Shown here: one piece after another, positions 5,657-54,326 of the stretch
How the letters are laid out: the number at the start of each line of letters is the position of its first letter
Position numbering within the stretch: the stretch's first letter is position 1
IMG/VR virus record: IMGVR_UViG_3300029911_000025
Location: 775 to 64,774 of that record
Reading direction: 5' to 3' (one strand)
Source: a virus
Taxonomy: Duplodnaviria; Caudoviricetes
Length of the DNA stretch: 64,000 nucleotides
Made by a program: the position numbers and the translations under genes
Notes under the pieces: model-generated
The model's input: the letters and a program-made list of their open reading frames with translations, nothing else
What the model was told of the DNA's origin: nothing
Databases searched by the model: none

Positions 5657-6019
5657 ACATACCGCGCGCCTACACTTGTCCGCTTATCGATCCTAAGCCC
5701 GCTGGCGTATGCCCGCATCGGGTGTACCCGTTTGTCGGCGTGGCTGGAAAGCAAGTGGCGCCGAACCTTAAGTCTTACTGCAATATTCGTGAAAAATGTT
5801 TAGCCAGCGGGAAGGGAAAACCGTGAGCACTCATCCCGTAAGATTTCCGCGCTTTGTGTTCGATGGACCGGGCCGCGTAGAAATCACCAAAGCTGACGGA
5901 ACGCTGCGCTGCCGGCAAGCGGTGATGCCGCCGTATTCTCTAACGCCGCGCCAATGTAAGAAGCGCGGCACGACACAAGAAGGTGTTCACTGGCTCTGCC
6001 GTAATCATAAAGGATTAAA

Positions 6020-6703
6020 ATGACAACGCCTCTCGTAACTGCATGGTCGTACACACGGTACGCTGATTACACTCGGTGCCCGCTGTATTTCAAGCTGAAC
6101 TACTTGGACAAAACCATCAAGTTTGAAGGCTCGCCCGCTATGCGGCGCGGGTCGAACATACACAAGGAAGCGGAGGACTTCACGCTTGGGCGCACCAAGA
6201 AGCTGCCTGACAGCCTGAAGAACTTCAAGACTCAGTTTGCCGAGCTTAAAGCGCTGAAGCCCATGGTGGAGCAGAACTGGGGCTTTCAGAAAGAATGGTC
6301 TTGGATCGGCCGCCCCGGCTGGTTCGGCGACGACGTGTGGTTGCGCGTGAAGGCCGACGTCTTCGCCCACTACGACGACGATACCGCGGATCTCATTGAC
6401 CACAAGACCGGACGCAAGTATGGCGTCAACATGGAGCAGGTGGAGCTCTTCGGCGCCACCGCGTTCATGCGTCTACCCACACTAAAGCACGTGAACATTC
6501 GGCTTTGGTACTTGGACATCGCCGATCCCAGCCAAAACGAAGAACTGGTCGAGATGACCGCCGCCGAGGCCGTGCTTATCCGCAAGGACTGGGACAAGAA
6601 GGTCAAGCCCATGTTCGCCGATCGGCGCTTTGCTCCGAAGCCAAACGATAAATGTCGCTGGTGTCCCGCGTCCAACGCTAACGGAGGAGTCTGTAAATTC
6701 TGA
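6020..6703 (+). CDS. PD-(D/E)XK Cas4-like exonuclease
   Basis: WSY..CP, RG..IH, D..DHKTG, C-terminal CRWC...C Fe-S motif. Confidence 0.85.
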   Translation: MTTPLVTAWSYTRYADYTRCPLYFKLNYLDKTIKFEGSPAMRRGSNIHKEAEDFTLGRTKKLPDSLKNFKTQFAELKALKPMVEQNWGFQKEWSWIGRPGWFGDDVWLRVKADVFAHYDDDTADLIDHKTGRKYGVNMEQVELFGATAFMRLPTLKHVNIRLWYLDIADPSQNEELVEMTAAEAVLIRKDWDKKVKPMFADRRFAPKPNDKCRWCPASNANGGVCKF

Positions 6704-6872
6704 CGTCCAAAGATTTCGCAGTCGTATGCTCTACCGCTGTCGCCGCCGTAGAGATGGAGTTTTACGAAAAGAGCGACGCTGACAAATACGCCAAGGCTAC
6801 GGCCGAGCGTAGCCCACAAGAAGAGTACTGGGTCGTTGAGATCAAGTCGAAATATAATGCGGGAGAAAACTG

Positions 6873-7292
6873 ATGCGTACACCCGACCTCATCATCGGAA
6901 CTGAGGAAGACCCATACTTGAAAAGATGGTGGGTCATACCGCGCAACCCGGTGTTCAACATATATCTGCACCAGATACTGCGGCCCGACAACGACGTGCT
7001 GCACGACCATCCATGGTGGAACTTGAGCATCGTGCTCAAGGGAGGCTATGTGGAGACCACGCCAAAGGACGCTTACACGCGGCGGGCGGGTAGCCTTGTG
7101 GCGCGGCGCCCCACGGCCCTGCACAGTCTTGCGCCGCTCCCAGGCGGCTGCTGGAGCCTGTTCATCACCGGCCCCCGGCTGCGGGTGTGGGGCTTTGCCT
7201 GCCCAAAAGGCTGGATACCGTACTACAAGTTCAAAAACTACGACAACCGCGCATCGGGCGAAGTTGTCGGTGAAGGAGGATGCGGAGAATGA
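6873..7292 (+). CDS. Cupin-like phage protein
   Basis: LH...D...HDHPW...SIVLKGGY.E...H metal-binding pattern. Confidence 0.7.
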   Translation: MRTPDLIIGTEEDPYLKRWWVIPRNPVFNIYLHQILRPDNDVLHDHPWWNLSIVLKGGYVETTPKDAYTRRAGSLVARRPTALHSLAPLPGGCWSLFITGPRLRVWGFACPKGWIPYYKFKNYDNRASGEVVGEGGCGE

Positions 7293-7810
7293 CCCACGTA
7301 ATGCTTGACCTTGAAACCTACGGCGTGGCGTCGGGATGCCCCGTGCTGAGTATCGGCGCCGTTGTGTTCAGCCCCGGTAGCGCCCCTAACGAGTTTTACG
7401 GCGTGGCGCGTAAAGAGCAACTCCGGTTCGGCCTATGGGAAGAACCTGAGACTGTGAAGTACTGGCAAGACCAGAGCGAAGACGCACGCAAGGTTCTCAC
7501 AGACCCGCGCGCCGTTGACCTGGACGTGCTTCTCAAGCGGTTCGCCGATTGGCTGGACCCCGCTGCGTTTGTCTGGGGCAACGGCGCGGACTTCGACCTG
7601 CCTATTTTGGCGACCGCTTATCGGGCATGCGGCATGGCTGTTCCGTGGCGCGGCTTCAACGGGCGGTGCTATCGCACCATGAAGAACTTGGCCCCTAGCG
7701 TCAAACTCATTCGCCAAGGTACTCACCACAACGCGCTAGACGATGCCAAGTCCCAAGCCGAGCATCTGACCCGCGTGCTTGCCGCGCTGGGTGGCCTTAC
7801 GCTAGGGTGA
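7289..7810 (+). CDS. DEDDh 3'-5' exonuclease
   Basis: MLDLET, WGNGADFD and HNALDDA motifs. Confidence 0.9.
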   Translation: MTHVMLDLETYGVASGCPVLSIGAVVFSPGSAPNEFYGVARKEQLRFGLWEEPETVKYWQDQSEDARKVLTDPRAVDLDVLLKRFADWLDPAAFVWGNGADFDLPILATAYRACGMAVPWRGFNGRCYRTMKNLAPSVKLIRQGTHHNALDDAKSQAEHLTRVLAALGGLTLG

Positions 7811-7813
7811 CGC

Positions 7814-8176
7814 ATGCCGGGGCGTAAAGATCACTACGGGACCACGCCCAAGGCGCGGCGCCTTGTGCGGCAGCTCGGGCAAAACGTGCGCGCCTTGCGT
7901 CAGCACTACGGCTGGTCTATGGTGGAACTCGGGCAGCGCAGCGGTCTAAGCTGGCGTATGATTGAGAAGATAGAGCAGGAAGGCAGCGCGCCAAGTTTTG
8001 TCGGTGTGGTATGGCTCGCAGAAGCGTTTGATGTTACCATAAATCAGTTGGTCTACATGCCGCTTATCTGCGTTGATGGACGGTTGCAGTCGCCTATAGA
8101 CGGAAGGTTCATAGTACACAATGCGGCGGGAACGCGAAGAGATAGAGAAGCCGGTACAACGGAGAGCACTTCTTGA
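7814..8176 (+). CDS. XRE-family HTH DNA-binding protein
   Basis: VRALRQHYGWSMVELGQRSGLS..MIEKIE...PS...LAEAFDV. Confidence 0.8.
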   Translation: MPGRKDHYGTTPKARRLVRQLGQNVRALRQHYGWSMVELGQRSGLSWRMIEKIEQEGSAPSFVGVVWLAEAFDVTINQLVYMPLICVDGRLQSPIDGRFIVHNAAGTRRDREAGTTESTS

Positions 8177-8516
8177 ATTACTTGTACCCTGCATCCCACT
8201 TAAGTTGATAGAGGGTAGTGAGACGGGGTGGCCCGACGGTATCTTCCTTATTCCAGGCGGGCGCCCGTTCTTCATAGAATTCAAATGGCCTGGAGAAGAG
8301 CCCGAGCCGAAGCAAGACTACATGCACACACTACTAAGGAACTTGGGGTATGACATCGAAGTCCACGACAACGTCGAAGAAGCTCTTGCAGCAATCAGAA
8401 CCCGCGCTGAAGCGGGTCGCCGTAAAATGGGAGCCCCTTCCATACATGAGGCGCGCCGTGAAGTTCTTACTGGAGCACGCGTGCGCCGCCCTGTTCCTCG
8501 ATCCCGGGCTTCGTAA
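8121..8516 (+). CDS. VRR-NUC endonuclease
   Basis: EIE, GWPD, FFIEFK and Q motifs. Confidence 0.85.
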   Translation: MRREREEIEKPVQRRALLELLVPCIPLKLIEGSETGWPDGIFLIPGGRPFFIEFKWPGEEPEPKQDYMHTLLRNLGYDIEVHDNVEEALAAIRTRAEAGRRKMGAPSIHEARREVLTGARVRRPVPRSRAS

Positions 8517-9837
8517 GACTTCCATCACCTACGCCGCGTTCTGCTTTCTGAAGAAGCAAGGCGTCGCCGATAAGATGCTTGTGATCGCGCCGATCAAAGC
8601 CTGTTACAGGGTTTGGCCTGCCGAAGCCGCCAAGTGGAAAGACTTCAGCCATCTACGCGTCGTCGTTCTTCATGGCCCTAAGAAGAACGAGCGGCTGCAC
8701 GAAGACGCCGACGTGTACGTGGTAAACCCCGAGGGCATCGAGTGGCTTGTTGGCAGTCGCAGCCTGCGCGAATGGAAGAAGCTTGGCTTTGATACCCTGT
8801 GCATAGACGAGCTCACAAAGTTTAAGAGCTCAAGCGGCAAGCGCTTCAAGATACTCAAGACGGTGCTGGACACTTTTAGCAGGCGGTGGGGCCTTACAGG
8901 CAGTCCGGCCCCCAACGGCCTGCTGGACCTCTTCGGACAGTGCTACGTGCTGGACCTTGGCCGCACGCTGGGCCGGTACATCACGCACTATCGGTTTGAG
9001 TACTTTGTCAACCCCGATAAACAAGGGTGGAACTGGGCGCTTAAGCCCGGCGCCAAAGAACGCATTTACGAAAGACTAAAGCCCCTTGCGCTGCGCATGA
9101 GCGCTGATGACTATTTGGACTTGCCGCCCATCATTGATATTGGGCTGGAGAAAGAAGAACGCCTTGAGCTGCCGCCTAAAGCGCGGGAACTCTATGACGC
9201 GCTTGAGGAAGACCTCATCGCTAAGATCGACGCCAAGATAGTCACGGCGGCCAACGCCGCTACAGCCGGAGGAAAGCTTTGGCAGATATGCAACGGCGGT
9301 CTGTACGTGGACCAAGACTTGGCGTCGATTATCAAAGGCGGCGTGGCGGGGCGCTCTACCATGAAGATACACGATGTCAAAACTGATTGGCTGGAAGAAC
9401 TCATAGAGTCTCTTAACGGCCAACCACTTTTGGTCGCGTACCAATACCAGCATGACCTGGAGCGCTTGCAAGAGCGCTTTGGCAAAGACATCCCCGTGTT
9501 CGGCGCGCACGATAAGAAGAACTCTCTCATAGAAGCCGCGTGGAACCGCAACGAACTCTTGTATGTGTTCGGTCAACAGGACTCCATTGCTCATGCTCTG
9601 AACTTGCAGGAAGGTTCTGCGGCGCACTTGGCGCACTACAGCTTGACGTGGAACCTTGAGACGTATGAGCAGCTTATCCGACGAATTCGCCGCTCGGGTA
9701 CGCAGGCCAAGCGCGTCTTTAGGTACCACGCGGTCATCAAGGATTCCACCGATGAAGACCGCGTGTACTCCATACGCCGCAAGGACAAAACACAGAAATC
9801 CCTTTTTGACGCATTGAAAGCGAGGCATGGCCGGTGA
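8350..9837 (+). CDS. SNF2/DEAD-like helicase
   Basis: DPGLRKT (motif I), CIDE, LTGSP, and C-terminal YEQ..RI.RSG. Confidence 0.9.
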   Translation: MTSKSTTTSKKLLQQSEPALKRVAVKWEPLPYMRRAVKFLLEHACAALFLDPGLRKTSITYAAFCFLKKQGVADKMLVIAPIKACYRVWPAEAAKWKDFSHLRVVVLHGPKKNERLHEDADVYVVNPEGIEWLVGSRSLREWKKLGFDTLCIDELTKFKSSSGKRFKILKTVLDTFSRRWGLTGSPAPNGLLDLFGQCYVLDLGRTLGRYITHYRFEYFVNPDKQGWNWALKPGAKERIYERLKPLALRMSADDYLDLPPIIDIGLEKEERLELPPKARELYDALEEDLIAKIDAKIVTAANAATAGGKLWQICNGGLYVDQDLASIIKGGVAGRSTMKIHDVKTDWLEELIESLNGQPLLVAYQYQHDLERLQERFGKDIPVFGAHDKKNSLIEAAWNRNELLYVFGQQDSIAHALNLQEGSAAHLAHYSLTWNLETYEQLIRRIRRSGTQAKRVFRYHAVIKDSTDEDRVYSIRRKDKTQKSLFDALKARHGR

Positions 9838-9937
9838 TGTGGTTAAAGATCAAGCAATGGCTATGGGCGGCCAAGCGCCGCCGTTACGAAAAACATCGTA
9901 CCAAGTGGCGCCGGGCTAACCCTATAAAGGATGTAAA

Positions 9938-10294
9938 ATGAGCAATGCAGGCTGGATCGGCGTAGACCTAGACGGCACGCTGGCGTTCTATGTAGACTGG
10001 GTACACCACGCCAATATCGGTGAACCCATTAGGCCCATGGTGAACCGGGTGAAGAAGTGGATCGCCGACGGCTACAAAGTGAAGGTGTTCACCGCACGTA
10101 TGTCCGTTGAGGATGAGGCCATACGCTCTGAGATCGCCGCTGCCATTCGGTTGTGGACCACGCGAAATATCGGCAAGCCCTTGGAAGCCACGTGTATCAA
10201 GGACCTCAATATGATCGAACTATGGGATGACCGCGCCGTGGGCGTGTTCCACAATACCGGCGAGCCATCCGGGCCGAGCCCGTTAGGGCTATGA
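9938..10294 (+). CDS. HAD-superfamily phosphatase (nucleotidase/PNKP-phosphatase-like)
   Basis: VDLDGTL, FTAR, K and WDDRA motifs. Confidence 0.8.
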   Translation: MSNAGWIGVDLDGTLAFYVDWVHHANIGEPIRPMVNRVKKWIADGYKVKVFTARMSVEDEAIRSEIAAAIRLWTTRNIGKPLEATCIKDLNMIELWDDRAVGVFHNTGEPSGPSPLGL

Positions 10295-10554
10295 GCACAA
10301 AGAATTCACCGATACACAAGCTGAACGCGGAAGCTGGTGAAATTGCGCGCACGCTTAAGCGCGCCGAGCGCCGGGAACCCACACTAATCCCAGCAGCAAC
10401 GCGCGACAAACCTACGATTAAGGTTGGTATCGTGATGGACGACAAAGTGCTTTCGCCGGAAATCTCCTGGGAAACTATAGGTGGCATGACTCAGGACGAA
10501 CTTGCCCGATGGATCGTAGATGAGATGCGGGAGATAAAGCATGTCAGACATTAG
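10291..10554 (+). CDS. Hypothetical protein
   Basis: Coupled ORF. Confidence 0.55.
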   Translation: MSTKNSPIHKLNAEAGEIARTLKRAERREPTLIPAATRDKPTIKVGIVMDDKVLSPEISWETIGGMTQDELARWIVDEMREIKHVRH

Positions 10555-48346: not shown

Positions 48347-48533
48347 AGTAGATCCTCGCTCCCCCGAAGAACTGAAGTACCAAGCTAAACTGAACAAAGT
48401 GAACAAACAGATACAGAAACTAAAAGGAGAACTGATGGCCGACCGCCTTGATGTCGCTTTATACTGGCGTAAGCATTACAGAATCAAGCTAAGACTTGCG
48501 CGCCATCACCGCAAAGCTTGTCCAAAAAGATAA
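48339..48533 (+). CDS. Small basic hypothetical protein
   Basis: Coupled ORF. Confidence 0.5.
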   Translation: MPKVDPRSPEELKYQAKLNKVNKQIQKLKGELMADRLDVALYWRKHYRIKLRLARHHRKACPKR

Positions 48534-49303
48534 ACGGAGATACAGGCCGACGGCGACCCTAGTCGGTGTAATGTTATCACCGCCCGCCCGGTCGGCCTGT
48601 ATCTCTCGCATTTTGGCCTTTACGGGCCGTCCCCCTACGCGGGCGGGCGGTTGCCGTACCCCGTGCAGCGCCAGCCGCCCCACGGTCCAAATAATGCTTG
48701 CATCTCCCATTAAAACGACCGACAAAGAGGTCGGCGCATAGTGCGCCTATGGAGAGCCTTGCATTTTGTAAACACGGGGCAACGCCCTAGGACCCGCCTT
48801 ACTTAGCGACCCGGATGGGCGCCACTAGGCCAACAGTACAACCTAACGCACAGGCATTGCGTAGGGAGCCCGGTTACAAGCGCCACCCCAAGAAGCGCCC
48901 CGCCCGATAATGCCACAGCCCGAGGTTAAGCCCGCCACAGCGTAGCCAGTGCGGGCGCCAAGGCAGACGGCGCGGCAAAGGGAGGCAGGGATACGGCTAG
49001 TAACAGAGCCGCGCTAGGGCGAAGCTTTGGCTGTATACAGCCGCAACAGTGCAACCGCCCGCCCCGCCATAAGCAACCGGCCACAACTAAGGCGATAGGT
49101 GAGACCAAGCGACTATAAGGACCGAGCAGACCCTAGCGCTACACAATAAAACTCTGCGATGCGCGAAGGGCGGCTGTGGCCAAGCTATAAGCGACGCATG
49201 AAAAACGCCCCATACCCGAATTTGGGGAGCGCCCGTTGGCGCAAATACAGCGACCCCGCCCCGCTATGCTGCAAAGCATGGCGGGGCGGTGACGTTTTAC
49301 TGA

Positions 49304-49354
49304 AGGCCGAAACGGCTATGCCGTCCAGACGTTATACGTTTGCTGACGAGGCCT
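49304..49354 (+). ncRNA. Hammerhead ribozyme HHR1, type II, canonical core
   Basis: AGGCC-GAAA-CGGC tat GCCG-TC^-CAGACG ttata CGTTTG-CTGACGA-GGCCT; predicted cut after C49325. Confidence 0.88.
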
Positions 49355-49389: not shown

Positions 49390-49989
49390 ATGACCAAGAC
49401 CGTTACTAAAGACACTCGCCCCTCCAAGGGCGGCGAACCGACCGTGACCAAAGTGGCTACGGCGCCCGCGCACGGCGCAACGGACAAAGCGCCGCATACT
49501 AAGCGCGCCGTTGCTGAAAACGCGGCCGCGACCAAGCTTGCCAAGGCCGAGAAAACCTTGGCCGACGCCAAGGCGGCGGTGACCGTTGCAACCGCAACCG
49601 CCACTAAGGCTAAGGGCGCCGCCCGCAAGGACGCGTTTACCGCCAAGGCGGCGGCCGAACTGGCTGTCATCGCGGCAAACAAGGCGGTCAACGCCCTAAA
49701 GCGTGAGGCAATGACCCCGGAAGAACGCGCCGCAACCGCCAAGCCCGCCAAGGCGGCGACCAAGACGCCCCGCGTCGCGGTGAACCGGACGATCTCCAAG
49801 GGGTCGGTCGTGTACGCCAACGCCAAGGGCGGCTGGACCTTGTACATGGTCACGCTGACCCTGAAGCACAAGGACACGGACAGCGCGACCGCCGCGCACA
49901 AGGATGGCGCCGCGAAAGCGGGTTACCCCGCGACCAAGCCGCTGGACTTCAAGTGGATGGACGCCAAGGGGTACATCAAGCTCGGCTAG
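49390..49989 (+). CDS. Lys/Ala-rich (H1-like) protein with conserved C-terminal domain (paralog 2)
   Basis: RBS AAGGA; WTLYMVTLTLKHKDT...LDFKWMDAKGYI. Confidence 0.8.
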   Translation: MTKTVTKDTRPSKGGEPTVTKVATAPAHGATDKAPHTKRAVAENAAATKLAKAEKTLADAKAAVTVATATATKAKGAARKDAFTAKAAAELAVIAANKAVNALKREAMTPEERAATAKPAKAATKTPRVAVNRTISKGSVVYANAKGGWTLYMVTLTLKHKDTDSATAAHKDGAAKAGYPATKPLDFKWMDAKGYIKLG

Positions 49990-50038
49990 TGTCCGCCCGC
50001 AAAGACCCCACGCCCGAAAATGGCGTGGGGTCCGAGCG

Positions 50039-50093
50039 CCTGTCCACGCCTATCGCTGGCGTGCCGATGATGGCCAAGCATGGCCGAAACAGG
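50039..50093 (+). ncRNA. Hammerhead ribozyme HHR2, type III, variant core CCGAUGAU
   Basis: CCTGTC^-CACGCC tatcgct GGCGTG-CCGATGAT-GGCCA agca TGGCC-GAAACAGG; predicted cut after C50044. Confidence 0.8.
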
Positions 50094-50101
50094 AGACCAA
50101 G

Positions 50102-50335
50102 ATGGCAAAGCTAACTTGCGCTCGGGTTATAGAGCGCGGTCCCAGAGGCGGGACCTATGTACGCCACGTTCTGGAAGAGAACGGCACGGAGATCGGGCGC
50201 TTTGTTAAGCGCTCCGAATGCCAGCGCGCCTATGGCAAGCGCCGCGCCGCGTTGCTCGCCGAGGGGAAAAACGTGTTCACGTTCACCCGCGACTGGCATG
50301 GTCACTGGGACGGAGTGGACCGGCGTGCGCTCTGA
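50102..50335 (+). CDS. Hypothetical early protein
   Basis: RBS AGGAG overlaps HHR2 stem III. Confidence 0.7.
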   Translation: MAKLTCARVIERGPRGGTYVRHVLEENGTEIGRFVKRSECQRAYGKRRAALLAEGKNVFTFTRDWHGHWDGVDRRAL

Positions 50336-50567
50336 CCCAAAGCTGAGCGCTGCGGACATCGCGATAGCGGTGAACCGCGCGCCAACCATGTTCAAAGCTT
50401 GCCAGCGCGTCGCCGCCCATGGGCGGGAGCGTTGCACTAGCGAAGACTTCGCCAAAGCGCTGCGCCGCTATGACGCGGACACGGTGAAGCGCTTGGAAAA
50501 TCGCTTTGCCGCGTTGTCCGCTGGAGAGCGCGCGGCGATCATATCCGCGCTCATGGCGCGCCTATGA
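50325..50567 (+). CDS. Hypothetical protein, paralogous to the N-terminus of the next ORF
   Basis: APTMFKACQ...CTSEDFAKA...D..T.....RFA; GTG start after GGAG. Confidence 0.6.
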   Translation: MRSDPKLSAADIAIAVNRAPTMFKACQRVAAHGRERCTSEDFAKALRRYDADTVKRLENRFAALSAGERAAIISALMARL

Positions 50568-51139
50568 TCGCCCCGACCATCTTCGCGGCATGCCAGAGCA
50601 TCTCGGCCGTACACTGTACGGTCGAGGGCTTTGCGCGCGCCGTGCAAAACGTGGACGCGGCGACGCTAGCCAAGGCTGAGAAGCGCTTTGCCAAGGCAAA
50701 GCCCGATCAGCAGATGGCCATGGCGCGTCAGTTCATGTACAACGAAAAACTCCCTCATGAGAAGGAACCGACTATGAGAGATCTCGCCGCAATGTGGACA
50801 GGGAAGGCGATCTTTACCGACGCCTTCCTAAAAGTCCTGCCAAGGCGCCAGACGACCGCCCAAGAGCCTGAGCCGCGTGTGGCGACTAAGAGGGTAGTGA
50901 CGACCCGCCAGACTCGCGTCCGCCAAGGCGCGACGATCTACTATACAGCGGGACCGGCTCAGCACCGACGTGGTCGCAACGTGATGAACTGGACGAACTA
51001 CATGGTCCGGACCATCCTCGCCCATGGTAACACGCGGGACGCGGTCGCGGCTCACAGAGAGTCCGGCGCGTATCAAGAGAAGAAGCTGGACTTCAACTGG
51101 ATGTTCAAAAATCAGTACATTACCAAGGCCGACCCCTAA
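50564..51139 (+). CDS. Two-module protein with the conserved C-terminal domain (paralog 3); possible internal start at 50774
   Basis: APTIFAACQ module plus WTNYMVRTILAHGNT...LDFNWMFKNQYI. Confidence 0.75.
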   Translation: MIAPTIFAACQSISAVHCTVEGFARAVQNVDAATLAKAEKRFAKAKPDQQMAMARQFMYNEKLPHEKEPTMRDLAAMWTGKAIFTDAFLKVLPRRQTTAQEPEPRVATKRVVTTRQTRVRQGATIYYTAGPAQHRRGRNVMNWTNYMVRTILAHGNTRDAVAAHRESGAYQEKKLDFNWMFKNQYITKADP

Positions 51140-51150
51140 CCGGGTCGGCC

Positions 51151-51216
51151 GTTCATGTCCAAGGCTAATGCCGCCTTGCCGATGATGACCCAAGGCATAA
51201 GGGTCGAAACATGAAC
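51151..51216 (+). ncRNA. Hammerhead ribozyme HHR3, type III, variant core CCGAUGAU, with loop I-loop II complementarity
   Basis: GTTCATGTC^-CAAGGC taATGCC GCCTTG-CCGATGAT-GACCC aaGGCATaa GGGTC-GAAACATGAAC; predicted cut after C51159. Confidence 0.85.
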
Positions 51217-51227
51217 AGGAGATCTAG

Positions 51228-52331
51228 ATGACAATCTGGAGAGCAAACATATACGCTGCGAAATGCAGTGTATGCGGAATGGAGCTCCCTCCAAACGAGG
51301 GGTGCTACCGCGTTGACTCAGTAATGGGGCGCAAATTCTACTGCGCGACACACAGGTACGAGTTCGACGTAAGCGGCGAACCGGCCCCTGAGCCCGCGTT
51401 TGCCAAGAACGCGGCAACGTCAGCGGTCAACGTAGAGGGCGTCGACGTCGACGACCTTGCGCGCAAGACTGCTGACCTCACCTTCGAAAAGGTGGCCGAG
51501 CATTTCGTGGCCACGGTCGGCCCCGGCGTCGAGAGGATGCTCCCAGCGCTTGTGCGGTCCGAGCTTCTCAAGGTCACCAAGGTCGCGGAGATCAAGATTG
51601 GTAAGGCGCCCAGTGTAAAGCTGGACAAGAGCCACGCCATGCTCCCGACGATACTTCAGGCCATGGTGGCGGGGTCCAACCCATTCTTGGTCGGCCCAGC
51701 CGGTTCCGGCAAGACCACACTGGCGAAGCAAATCGCCAAGGTCATGGGGCTGAAGTTCTACATGGCGGCGCGAGTCACCAGCGAGTTCAAGCTTATCGGC
51801 TTCGTGGACGCCCATGGCGCCACGGTTCGCACAAGCTTCCGCGAAGCGTACGAATACGGTGGAGTCTTTCTCTTCGATGAGGTGGACGCCAGCGACGCGG
51901 ACGCCATGACAAGCTTTAATGCCGCGCTGGACAACGGCATGTGTGACTTCCCGAACGGTCTTGTGCAAGTCCACAAGGACTTCCACGCCATTGCGGCGGG
52001 CAATACCTTTGGGCGCGGCGCAGACCGCCAGTATGTCGGCCGCAATCAACTGGACGCGGCCACTATCGACCGGTTCGACTTCTTCGAAGTCGACTATGAT
52101 GAAGCGCTGGAGCACGAAATCGCTGGGGACACGGAATGGACCACCTATGTCCAGAAGATCCGCGCGCAAGTGATGGCGCAACAAGTCCGGCACATTGTCA
52201 GCCCGCGTGCCTCTATACGGGGCGCGCGCATGCTCGCCGCCGGTATGGACCGCGGAGTCGTCGCGGACGCCACGATCTGGAAAGGTCTGGCGGCTGACGT
52301 ACGGCGCCGCATAGAGAACGGGGTGCTCTGA
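51228..52331 (+). CDS. MoxR/CbbQ/CobS-like AAA+ ATPase
   Basis: Walker A GPAGSGKT, Walker B FLFDEVD, AAGNT and LDAAT.DRF. Confidence 0.9.
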   Translation: MTIWRANIYAAKCSVCGMELPPNEGCYRVDSVMGRKFYCATHRYEFDVSGEPAPEPAFAKNAATSAVNVEGVDVDDLARKTADLTFEKVAEHFVATVGPGVERMLPALVRSELLKVTKVAEIKIGKAPSVKLDKSHAMLPTILQAMVAGSNPFLVGPAGSGKTTLAKQIAKVMGLKFYMAARVTSEFKLIGFVDAHGATVRTSFREAYEYGGVFLFDEVDASDADAMTSFNAALDNGMCDFPNGLVQVHKDFHAIAAGNTFGRGADRQYVGRNQLDAATIDRFDFFEVDYDEALEHEIAGDTEWTTYVQKIRAQVMAQQVRHIVSPRASIRGARMLAAGMDRGVVADATIWKGLAADVRRRIENGVL

Positions 52332-53170
52332 TGCGCCTGTCACAGTCCGGTAACATAGTCGTTCAGTTTGGTGACTCGTTAGACGACGTTGTGCGTTACT
52401 TGCGCACGACGCCGCGTGTCTGGACCTACAACAACTCCAAGACTAATGACTACGGTCACCGCTGGACTTTTGGCCTTGACTACGAGGGTGCGCTGGAGCT
52501 CGCCCTCAAAGGATGGCCCGACGGCACGGACCGCCTTGCCAAGGGCGTCAAGGCTATGCCCGCGCCACAAGCGGTCCACCATAAGCGCCAGTTCGATGTC
52601 GGGGGTGACTTCCCCGATGTCGGCCGCTTCGTGAGTGGTCAGCCTGACTGCATGGTCCGGCGCGGGCGCCAGTCCGGCATAAAGCCGGTGATCCACTTGG
52701 TAATCGCGCCCATGACTCACAGCGAGGTCACCGCCTATGAGTTCCTCACCATGGGGACTGCTATGGCATTGGTCATCGACCAGTTGGAGGCCTCGGGACG
52801 CCGCGTGGAGCTGGACGTTGCGTTCTACCGGCGGCTCCCCAACGGCAAATCGCTAGAGGGCTGGAAGATAAAGCGCGCTGACGAACACTTGGACTTCGGG
52901 GCGCTTGCCTTTAGCATTGCGCATCCGGCCTCTGTGCGGCGCCTCGGGTTCGCTTTGCGGGAGCGCACGCGGTACAGTATGCAGGACGATGACTACGGAC
53001 ACTCCATACCCATCACGGCTGAAATCCTGCCGCTCATCGACGCTGAGCGCGCCTTGTGTATCAACATAGCGTACTCCGACTGTAAGACCACGCGCGGCGC
53101 CGTGCGCTCGTTGGTCAACATAATCAACAACGCGGCGGGCGAGACCATTGTGGAGGCAGACTATGACTGA
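52331..53170 (+). CDS. vWA-like partner of the AAA+ ATPase
   Basis: Coupled to the ATPase; AL.GW, G...DV....G.P..M and HP...RR motifs. Confidence 0.65.
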   Translation: MRLSQSGNIVVQFGDSLDDVVRYLRTTPRVWTYNNSKTNDYGHRWTFGLDYEGALELALKGWPDGTDRLAKGVKAMPAPQAVHHKRQFDVGGDFPDVGRFVSGQPDCMVRRGRQSGIKPVIHLVIAPMTHSEVTAYEFLTMGTAMALVIDQLEASGRRVELDVAFYRRLPNGKSLEGWKIKRADEHLDFGALAFSIAHPASVRRLGFALRERTRYSMQDDDYGHSIPITAEILPLIDAERALCINIAYSDCKTTRGAVRSLVNIINNAAGETIVEADYD

Positions 53171-53332
53171 AGAACCACTGTACCGCATCCAAGTCAAGCG
53201 GGGCGACCAATGGTCGTATATTCTAAAGCCCATGTCGCTCGACATGGAGCGGCGGACTCTGAACAGCCTGCCGCCACCGATCAGGGTGACCGACGAGTTC
53301 GGCGCCCCGATCCCGGACCTCGTGTGGTACAG

Positions 53333-53746
53333 ATGACCGCCCCCTTCACCAGCGCCACCGAAGCACGCGCCTTCGTGCTCGGTGGCAACGCGCGGTTCAC
53401 CATAGTATCAAAGGTGACCAAGTATCGGTACACCTATCGCGTGAGAGCCAGTAAGGACAAGCGAATCTCATTCGTGCGCCTGCTGACCGAGCCGGGACAC
53501 TACACCTATCTCGGCTTCATCAAGAACGGAGAGCTCCGCCTTAGCTCGAAGTCCAAGATGACCACTGGATCTCTGCCAGTGGAGGCGTTCGCTTGGTTAC
53601 TGCGGCGCTTGAACAAGGGCGAGCTCCATCCCATGCTGGAGATATGGCATGATGGTCACTGCGGGCGTTGTGGCAGAGCACTCACAGTGCCGAGTTCCCT
53701 CGCAAGCGGGTTCGGCCCAGAATGTGTGCTCCATGTCCACCACTAA
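53333..53746 (+). CDS. DUF6011-like Zn-finger protein
   Basis: C.RCGR.LT.P.S...G.GPEC. Confidence 0.75.
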   Translation: MTAPFTSATEARAFVLGGNARFTIVSKVTKYRYTYRVRASKDKRISFVRLLTEPGHYTYLGFIKNGELRLSSKSKMTTGSLPVEAFAWLLRRLNKGELHPMLEIWHDGHCGRCGRALTVPSSLASGFGPECVLHVHH

Positions 53747-54053
53747 GCTCATGGCAATCCTTGCCATAGGACCCGTATCAGGGCCGCTTTTGTTTTACGC
53801 CTACCATTGCGCCCGCAAGCGCCAATGGTGGCGCGTAGCAGCGTCCCTGAGCCTGCTAGGGGCGTTTTATGTGCTGGCGCCCGCCCTGCTAGTTCGCCTG
53901 TTAGTTTAGGCTTATACTTGCTTCGTTGGCTAACCCGCGAGCACGGCTCCGGCCGCGCGGGTAGTTCACAAGTACAGAGGAGAGACCATCATGAATCCCG
54001 GAGGTTAAACCCTTCAAGCCAAGGCCGACTCTTCCTGACCCGCGGAGTCGGCC

Positions 54054-54103
54054 GGGTCCACGGCTATCTGTCGTGCCGATGTGCGCAACTAAGCGCGAAA
54101 CCC
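54054..54103 (+). ncRNA. Hammerhead ribozyme HHR4, type III, variant core CCGAUGU
   Basis: GGGTC^-CACGGC tatct GTCGTG-CCGATGT-GCGC aactaa GCGC-GAAACCC; predicted cut after C54058; AAGGAGG follows. Confidence 0.72.
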
Positions 54104-54116
54104 CAAGGAGGTCCTA

Positions 54117-54326
54117 ATGCTTATGCAAGGAAACAAGCCGGTGAAGTCCGGTGAACGAGTCATCGATCAGCTTGGCCGGTCGTGGCAGTACGAGCGTGAT
54201 ATTCCGGCCGCAAAGAAAACGCCCGCCATTGTCACGGTGCGGCGCATCGACATGACCGGCGAGCCCGTGCGCGGCGAGACTAACTTCGCCATCCCCATGT
54301 TCCCAGCCTACTGGGTGAAGTCGTGA
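54117..54326 (+). CDS. Hypothetical early protein
   Basis: Strong RBS AAGGAGG directly after HHR4. Confidence 0.65.
   Translation: MLMQGNKPVKSGERVIDQLGRSWQYERDIPAAKKTPAIVTVRRIDMTGEPVRGETNFAIPMFPAYWVKS

Follow-up and report, generated by a model that had tools for sequence, protein, structure and literature searches.

We analysed 64,000 nucleotides (nt) of the IMG/VR virus record IMGVR_UViG_3300029911_000025 (Duplodnaviria; Caudoviricetes), positions 775 to 64,774, hereafter called the window, which make up nearly all of that 64,774-nt record. Within 49.2-54.2 kb of the window lie four hammerhead-shaped RNAs, all on the strand that carries a long run of + genes: one type II element with a canonical core (HHR1) and three type III elements (W1, W2 and W3) in which the U at position 4 of the conserved core strand is replaced by C (U4C; the two states are called U4 and C4 below). 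Our preferred interpretation, which we hold with a little more confidence than doubt, is that W1-W3 derive, by the U4C change, from a widespread phage family of type III hammerheads, that together with HHR1 they form intercistronic, transcript-cutting cassettes, and that C4 slows their cleavage. It builds on direct observations of the anatomy of the elements, of their family relationship, of the compensatory upkeep of their helices and of the recurrence of C4 in other phages. W1-W3 are unusual members of a known ribozyme family with a rare, already documented substitution; they are not a new kind of element.

49304-49354, + strand: HHR1, type II hammerhead; canonical core CUGACGA at 49343-49349, GAAA at 49309-49312; next gene from 49390
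50039-50093, + strand: W1, type III hammerhead-like element; core CCGAUGAU at 50064-50071; start codon at 50102
51151-51216, + strand: W2, type III element; core CCGAUGAU at 51179-51186; AGGAG at 51217-51221; ATG at 51228
54054-54103, + strand: W3, type III element; core CCGAUGU at 54076-54082; AAGGAGG at 54105-54111; ATG at 54117

Anatomy of the four elements

A first-pass annotation of the window had called three variant cores, in DNA letters CCGATGAT at 50064-50071 and 51179-51186 and CCGATGT at 54076-54082, beside the canonical CTGACGA of HHR1 at 49343-49349, and our reading of the sequence agrees with it exactly. It had described the variants as U4C in all three copies, with an extra U in W1 and W2 or an A9U change in W3, and this too is what the sequence contains. 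Compared with the consensus core strand C3-U4-G5-A6-N7-G8-A9, W1 and W2 match at six of seven positions, position 4 being C, and carry one extra U after A9. The core strand of W3 matches at five of the seven, having both C4 and a U where A9 is expected; the loss of A9 places the family's extra U at the A9 position. Canonical in all three copies are C3, G5, A6, G8, G12-A13-A14, A15.1-U16.1, the G10.1-C11.1 pair and the GUC triplet. The stem II strands that G10.1-C11.1 closes are GGCC/GGCC in W1, GACCC/GGGUC in W2 and GCGC/GCGC in W3.

W1-W3 share the type III layout, in which stem III is open and loops close stems I and II; the descriptor gave stems of 6/5/5, 6/5/8 and 6/4/4 pairs for W1, W2 and W3, respectively. 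In W1, stem III is formed by 50039-50043/50089-50093, stem I by 50045-50050/50058-50063 and stem II by 50072-50075/50082-50085, with C17 at 50044, GAAA at 50086-50089 and a predicted cleavage between C50044 and C50045. C17 of W2 is 51159, with cleavage predicted between C51159 and C51160, and stem III has 8 base pairs (bp); C17 of W3 is 54058, with cleavage predicted between C54058 and C54059, and stem III has 4 bp only. HHR1 combines the full canonical core CUGACGA with GAAA and GUC, has an open stem II and descriptor stems of 7/5/5 pairs, and is predicted to cleave between C49325 and C49326. The three-way junction is the minimum-energy fold for HHR1, W1 and W2.

Complementary loops had been reported for two of the copies in the first-pass annotation, and both complements are in the sequence. 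In W2, AUGCC of loop I (51168-51172) is complementary to GGCAU of loop II (51194-51198); for a Watson-Crick match of this length (5 nt) in loops of 7 and 9 nt, an arithmetic estimate gives a chance of about 0.015. The 3-nt match GCU/AGC of W1 is present, yet at a chance of about 0.3 it is not meaningful, and the loops of W3 have no match. The UNmYN heptaloop motif of tertiary-stabilised hammerheads, in the form given in excerpts of PMC2632901, fits loop 1 of W1 and W2.

Chance, assembly and Rfam

Because short motifs recur in large data, we considered whether the elements could be chance look-alikes or sequencing artefacts, an explanation that we now regard as practically out of the question. 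A loose pattern (CCGATG..T..GAAAC) was a weak test: it matched three times in the window, shuffled sequences gave 0.61 matches on average, and three of the 100 shuffles did equally well. A three-helix type III descriptor yielded the three C4 matches in the window against a mean of 0.03 strong matches per dinucleotide shuffle, the maximum in any of 200 such shuffles being 1, and this effectively refutes a chance origin. Furthermore, all four elements are intergenic, on the coding strand and 6-35 nt upstream of a start codon, and in W1, W2 and W3 a Shine-Dalgarno sequence of good quality lies between element and start codon. A covariance model scored W1 at 69.3, W2 at 68.3 and W3 at 51.0 bits, with the next best match in the window at 11.8; the model was built from W1-W3 plus two others, and the high scores are partly by construction. 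Its informative outcome is that the window holds no further copies.

The window sequence is present in DNA runs from peat metagenomes. Four other DNA runs have contigs over W1 and W3 (X2, X4, X6 and X8), two of them also over W2 (X2 and X4), and in the covered elements not one letter differs. C4 is therefore not an assembly error; since these contigs do not differ from the window over the elements, they also provide no population variation at position 4.

The first-pass annotation had expected strict-consensus searches to miss the variants, and they did. An Rfam scan of the window gave no match at the gathering score, RF00008 had no match in the window at E <= 10, and only W3 was matched by any Rfam model, partially, by HH9 (20.6 bits against a gathering score of 52). 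The canonical HHR1 was missed as well, both by the Rfam scans (of the whole window and of a 5-kb slice) and by a Hammerhead_II (RF02276) search at E <= 10. The Rfam test is therefore insensitive here, and short phage hammerheads seem to be under-detected by curated models. We discarded the type I reading of W3 to which the HH9 alignment points, because the sequence that follows the alternative GGUC site is unable to pair with the strand lying 5' of the core.

Relationship to a phage type III family

The extra U before stem II had been put forward as part of a new variant, and this part of the claim did not survive comparison with other phages. We scanned IMG/VR with the U4 version of a 20-base pattern, GUCCA..UG CUGAUGAU..GAAAC, and among the 112 loci listed there were at least 23 well-formed type III elements, of which at least 18 were unique. 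The core CUGAUGAU, with canonical U4 and the extra U before stem II, is the usual one in this widespread phage type III family. In a wider descriptor run, 12 of 34 unique canonical matches had an extra nucleotide after A9. Because the extra U is also the norm with U4, it is not peculiar to the C4 copies. As judged from core and frame, W1-W3 belong to the widespread family, and their true deviation is U4C.

An extra core nucleotide between A9 and G10.1 was reportedly described in a viroid hammerhead by De la Pena and Flores in 2001. Those hammerheads resemble W1 and W2 in having one unpaired nucleotide between the A9 end of the core strand and stem II; the difference is that the extra base is here a U, and the norm for a whole phage family with canonical U4.

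C4 in other phage contigs

The first-pass annotation had proposed a descriptor search in phage and metagenome data, and such searches found C4 cores in six other contigs (L057; L037, L254 and L236; L171; L289). The C4 version of the 20-base frame, scanned through IMG/VR to completion with the window's own record not among the results, matched 67 stretches, two of which were well formed, those of L057 and L037. For the same frame, at least 18 unique U4 elements thus stand against 2 with C4, or 4 when the window's own two are included. L037 has three type III hammerheads, the C4 copy (10162-10218) lying beside two U4 paralogues. Two more C4 elements come from loci that were fetched by ATPase homology and not by motif: L236 has the core CCGAUGA, and L254 (8488-8544) the core UCGAUGA, with U3 and C4. 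In L254 the C3-G8 pair becomes a U-G wobble and an A-A mismatch occupies 10.1/11.1; this element and the C4 copy of L037 have the same stem I, a wholly different stem II and a different 10.1/11.1 mismatch.

Type II hammerheads can also carry C4. One, in L289, has a CCGAUGA core, a GUA site and no extra nucleotide. The 217-kb phage contig L171 has at least seven near-identical type II hammerheads, some with altered cleavage triplets; the seven copies have one common stem I, with C4 in three and U4 in four. They lie on the reverse strand at about 5800-10450 in reverse-complement coordinates, roughly 500-1500 nt apart, between small repeated genes. The three helices were confirmed by descriptor in 3 of the 7 copies, and the remainder were read by eye.

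For an unbiased sample we took 160 loci (1.29 Mb) chosen by a protein and not by motif, and applied a stricter descriptor. Position 4 was U in 32 of the 35 unique matches, C in three, and A or G in none; C4 was found in two of the three type III descriptor matches of these loci. In a C4-frame scan of genome contigs (at least 120 stretches), none of the 121 matches listed had three good helices. Weak covariance-model matches in L199, L246 and L331 were set aside, being coding-region look-alikes or lacking A15.1. Within the contigs sampled, C4 is a recurrent natural state in phages, at low frequency.

It could be argued that C4 with the extra U is a positively selected, distinct class, either rate-tuned (setting processed against read-through mRNA) or conditional, with the extra U compensating. 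We think this unlikely, although several observations point in its direction: three of the four ribozymes of this phage have C4, as do two of the three type III descriptor matches of the unbiased loci, the phage comes from peat metagenomes, and an unpaired or mismatched nucleotide follows A9 in 9 of 11 C4 elements, against 12 of 34 canonical matches. The 11 C4 elements fall into about five lineages, however, which leaves the association of C4 with the extra nucleotide short of significance; U4 members of the family normally have the extra U as well, L289 has C4 without it, and in the same frame U4 far outnumbers C4. An association of C4 with U at position 7, like that with the extra nucleotide, was dropped for want of independent lineages. 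More specifically, the C4 hammerheads could form a selected conditional subclass in which pH- or factor-responsive cleavage splits the early operon, a natural switch in an acidic-peat phage. The U-turn would need an N3-H donor, which cytosine gives only if protonated, and the family's extra U after A9 would be the permissive background; we hold this version to be quite improbable.

Upkeep of the helices

When W1-W3 were compared with one another, we counted from the sequence seven helix pairs changed on both sides and none broken. All three helices differ among the copies, through compensatory changes, and the unpaired core letters are identical except for A9 in W3. We also examined 12 type III elements in an alignment that had been fitted to the covariance model and therefore favours the structure: 86.7% of the cells pair, against 61.9% in shuffles, and double changes occur in 12 of 17 pairs, a number reached by 1 of 500 shuffles. 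These results suggest selection on the hammerhead fold after C4 arose; the elements are real, and their fold is probably under selection.

The first-pass annotation had argued from recurrence in copies with different stems that the variant was selected and not decaying. The compensatory helix changes lend weight to that argument. The recurrence itself does so less than was supposed: W1-W3 are paralogues of a single lineage, W2 and W3 having a hairpin stem in common, and within-window recurrence for that reason counts roughly once.

Hairpin-hammerhead cassettes

In front of each of the four elements there is a strong hairpin, as follows.

49256-49289, + strand: hairpin before HHR1; 15 bp, 4-nt loop; -36.7 kcal/mol for 49246-49303; z = -6.62; none of 200 shuffles as stable
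50004-50032, + strand: hairpin before W1; 11 bp, 7-nt loop; after stop codon 49987-49989; -26.8 kcal/mol; z = -6.16
51127-51150, + strand: hairpin GGCCGACCC/GGGUCGGCC adjoining W2; overlaps stop codon 51137-51139; -19.5 kcal/mol; z = -4.17
54023-54053, + strand: hairpin GGCCGACUC/GAGUCGGCC adjoining W3; stem of the same family as before W2; -17.9 kcal/mol; z = -2.73

The hairpins before W2 and W3 (51127-51150 and 54023-54053) have the stem GGCCGACNC/GNGUCGGCC in common, which argues that hairpin and ribozyme were duplicated as one unit; the intervals 51127-51216 and 54023-54103 appear to be a hairpin and hammerhead cassette duplicated whole. The order of hairpin, ribozyme and start codon also holds for related elements in other contigs. 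In 11 of 11 elements examined, in the window and in other contigs, an open reading frame (ORF) starts 6-50 nt downstream, and the downstream proteins are mutually unrelated.

Proposed mechanism

Each cassette consists of a strong hairpin followed by a hammerhead, a Shine-Dalgarno sequence and a start codon, and we propose that the cassettes would divide a long polycistronic transcript, early or middle, into sub-operon mRNAs. After a cut behind GUC, the upstream RNA would carry a protective hairpin and a 2',3'-cyclic phosphate at its end, and the downstream mRNA would begin with a 5'-OH and stems I and II, with the ribosome-binding site directly after. In W1 the Shine-Dalgarno AGGAG (50091-50095) shares bases with the 3' strand of stem III, and once the short 5' strand of this stem was freed, three Shine-Dalgarno bases would be exposed. 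The occurrence of cleavage, its rate and the fate of its products are what we infer here from sequence.

In phage T7, RNase III sites lie between the early genes, and after cutting, the upstream mRNA has a stabilising 3'-terminal hairpin. The likeness is one of function only, in that a long phage transcript is cut between cistrons and the upstream product keeps a 3' hairpin. The T7 cut is made by a host protein enzyme in a double-stranded RNA hairpin; the elements described here would be self-cleaving, and their hairpin forms a separate module upstream of the ribozyme.

C4 replaces the U of the CUGA U-turn and would most likely lower the rate of cleavage, not abolish it. Loop-loop contacts would probably assist, the clearest being the 5-bp kissing pair of W2, and the C4 state could have spread in this phage by cassette duplication. 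W1 and W2 are probably slower predicted self-cleavers than their canonical relatives. Impairment is likeliest, and may be severe, in W3, which lacks A9 and has the weakest stem III.

Cleavage or a structural role

Published work suggests that replacing U4 carries a real cost. According to excerpts of PMC3088659, U4 contacts the A6-N7 phosphate, and a natural viroid U4C variant had much reduced activity in vitro and was still infectious (there citing Ambros and Flores 1998). How well core variants are tolerated differs among natural scaffolds (PMC3884650).

The chief alternative to slowed cleavage is that the C4 elements are catalytically dead or nearly so, serving a structural role (as an insulator in the 5' untranslated region, an RNase barrier, or a protein-binding or translational element) or being young pseudo-ribozymes. 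We consider this possible but doubtful, and most of what weighs against our preferred interpretation counts in its favour. Every single mutant of the CUGA U-turn in one tertiary-stabilised type III hammerhead had low activity, and no second mutation except the C3/G8 swap restored it (PMC9901934). Some hammerhead-like RNAs with core changes are inactive, among them a Xanthomonas phage RNA whose core has more than one change (PMC3088659, legend of Fig. S7), which may or may not be C4. The core of W3 deviates at two positions, and its stem III is weak. In L171 and L037, C4 copies lie among near-identical U4 paralogues, a pattern that early decay would equally produce. Finally, L258, the closest relative found (its ATPase is 71% identical), has no ribozyme at 820-870 between the genes orthologous to those flanking W2, which overlap there as ATGA. 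The W2 cassette is therefore dispensable, and cassettes come and go between phages. Also against our preferred interpretation, the minimum-energy fold of W3 lacks stem III and is not a hammerhead (z = 0.06), and Rfam models recognise none of the elements.

Several observations are nevertheless difficult to reconcile with dead elements. The other core positions (C3, G5, A6, G8, G12-A14, A15.1-U16.1 and C17) are kept in three diverged copies, which would be needless for structure alone, and L037 and L254 share stem I and C4 despite a wholly different stem II. The absence of A4 and G4 from 35 matches, three of which have C4, is expected if C is the single tolerated replacement. The viroid variant with U4C, moreover, works in vivo, as reported in the excerpts of PMC3088659. 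Slowed cleavage by U4C derivatives remains the interpretation that we prefer.

Comparison with known hammerheads

The first-pass annotation had left open whether the variant was published, and it is not without precedent in print: U4C is documented for the viroid, and a CYGANGA descriptor has been published. C/T degeneracy at position 4 is reported in a 2026 virome survey that uses CYGANGA as a search pattern (PMC13481778). In the literature we found no description of C4 hammerheads in phages; the supplementary alignments or Fig. S7 of Perreault 2011 may contain the variant. The viroid U4C variant (Ambros and Flores 1998, as cited in excerpts of PMC3088659) shares the substitution, which there affects the CUGA turn in a type III hammerhead with tertiary stabilisation. 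In the viroid it is a variant within an RNA population and processes replication intermediates, whereas here it is DNA-encoded, in several diverged paralogues, in mRNA leaders.

The closest published parallel to the arrangement seen here is that of the clustered prophage hammerheads of Perreault 2011, which flank genes and, in the excerpted text, cleave in vitro and in E. coli (PMC3088659); the proposal made there is that processing turns long phage transcripts into mRNAs the length of a gene or an operon. Those clusters, as excerpted, resemble the present one in having hammerheads of mixed type within a few kb, on one strand, intergenic and around single genes or short blocks, and in pseudoknot or loop-loop contacts, which here are putative. 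They differ in that three of the four elements here have C4, one of these also lacking A9. The other phage core variants listed in the excerpted text of PMC3088659 are A6C (Bcep176), an A6a insertion, U13a, U15.1-A16.1, U3-A8 and U10.1-U11.1; U4C is not in that list.

The hammerhead core is taken to be almost invariant, an assumption on which most annotation pipelines depend. C4 is kept in several diverged copies of one phage, and in other phages it accounts for about one match in ten, with A4 and G4 never seen. Should these RNAs cleave, phage ribozymes are more numerous than hammerhead censuses show, and position 4 is more tolerant in nature than mutational scans of model ribozymes suggest; should they not, they are a clean example of ribozyme-derived structural elements. 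The role of phage hammerheads was still called open in a 2017 review (PMC6155905, in excerpt), and the layout of hairpin, ribozyme and ribosome-binding site offers a concrete model for it.

Genes and other features of the region

The four elements bound the following gene blocks.

49390-49989, + strand: gene block 1
50102-51139, + strand: gene block 2
51228-53909, + strand: gene block 3; AAA_5 ATPase, DUF7192- and DUF6011-domain proteins (Pfam)
54117 onward, + strand: gene block 4; leads to a primase-like gene

The ATG at 51228, downstream of W2, is the start of the AAA_5 ATPase gene (Pfam). Between the elements we found no terminator- or promoter-like signals beyond chance, and among the sequencing runs none listed as containing the window sequence was an RNA run. 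A blastn search of the window DNA against named phages gave no match, and tblastn with the ATPase downstream of W2 gave nothing above 60% identity. A locus search with the ATPase as a single protein query returned no relatives, whereas an alignment query did find relatives.

About 720 nt (48534-49255) separate the HHR1 hairpin from the preceding gene, which ends at 48533; they hold no convincing ORF, are rich in GC hairpins and have no Rfam match; this stretch could be a long structured leader or a non-coding RNA. The window proteins 49390-49989 and 50564-51139 matched no Pfam or PHROG family. These two proteins and the L258 homologue (391-862) have the C-terminal motif LDF(K/N)WM in common; the two window proteins may be paralogues, each the last in a block that ribozymes delimit.

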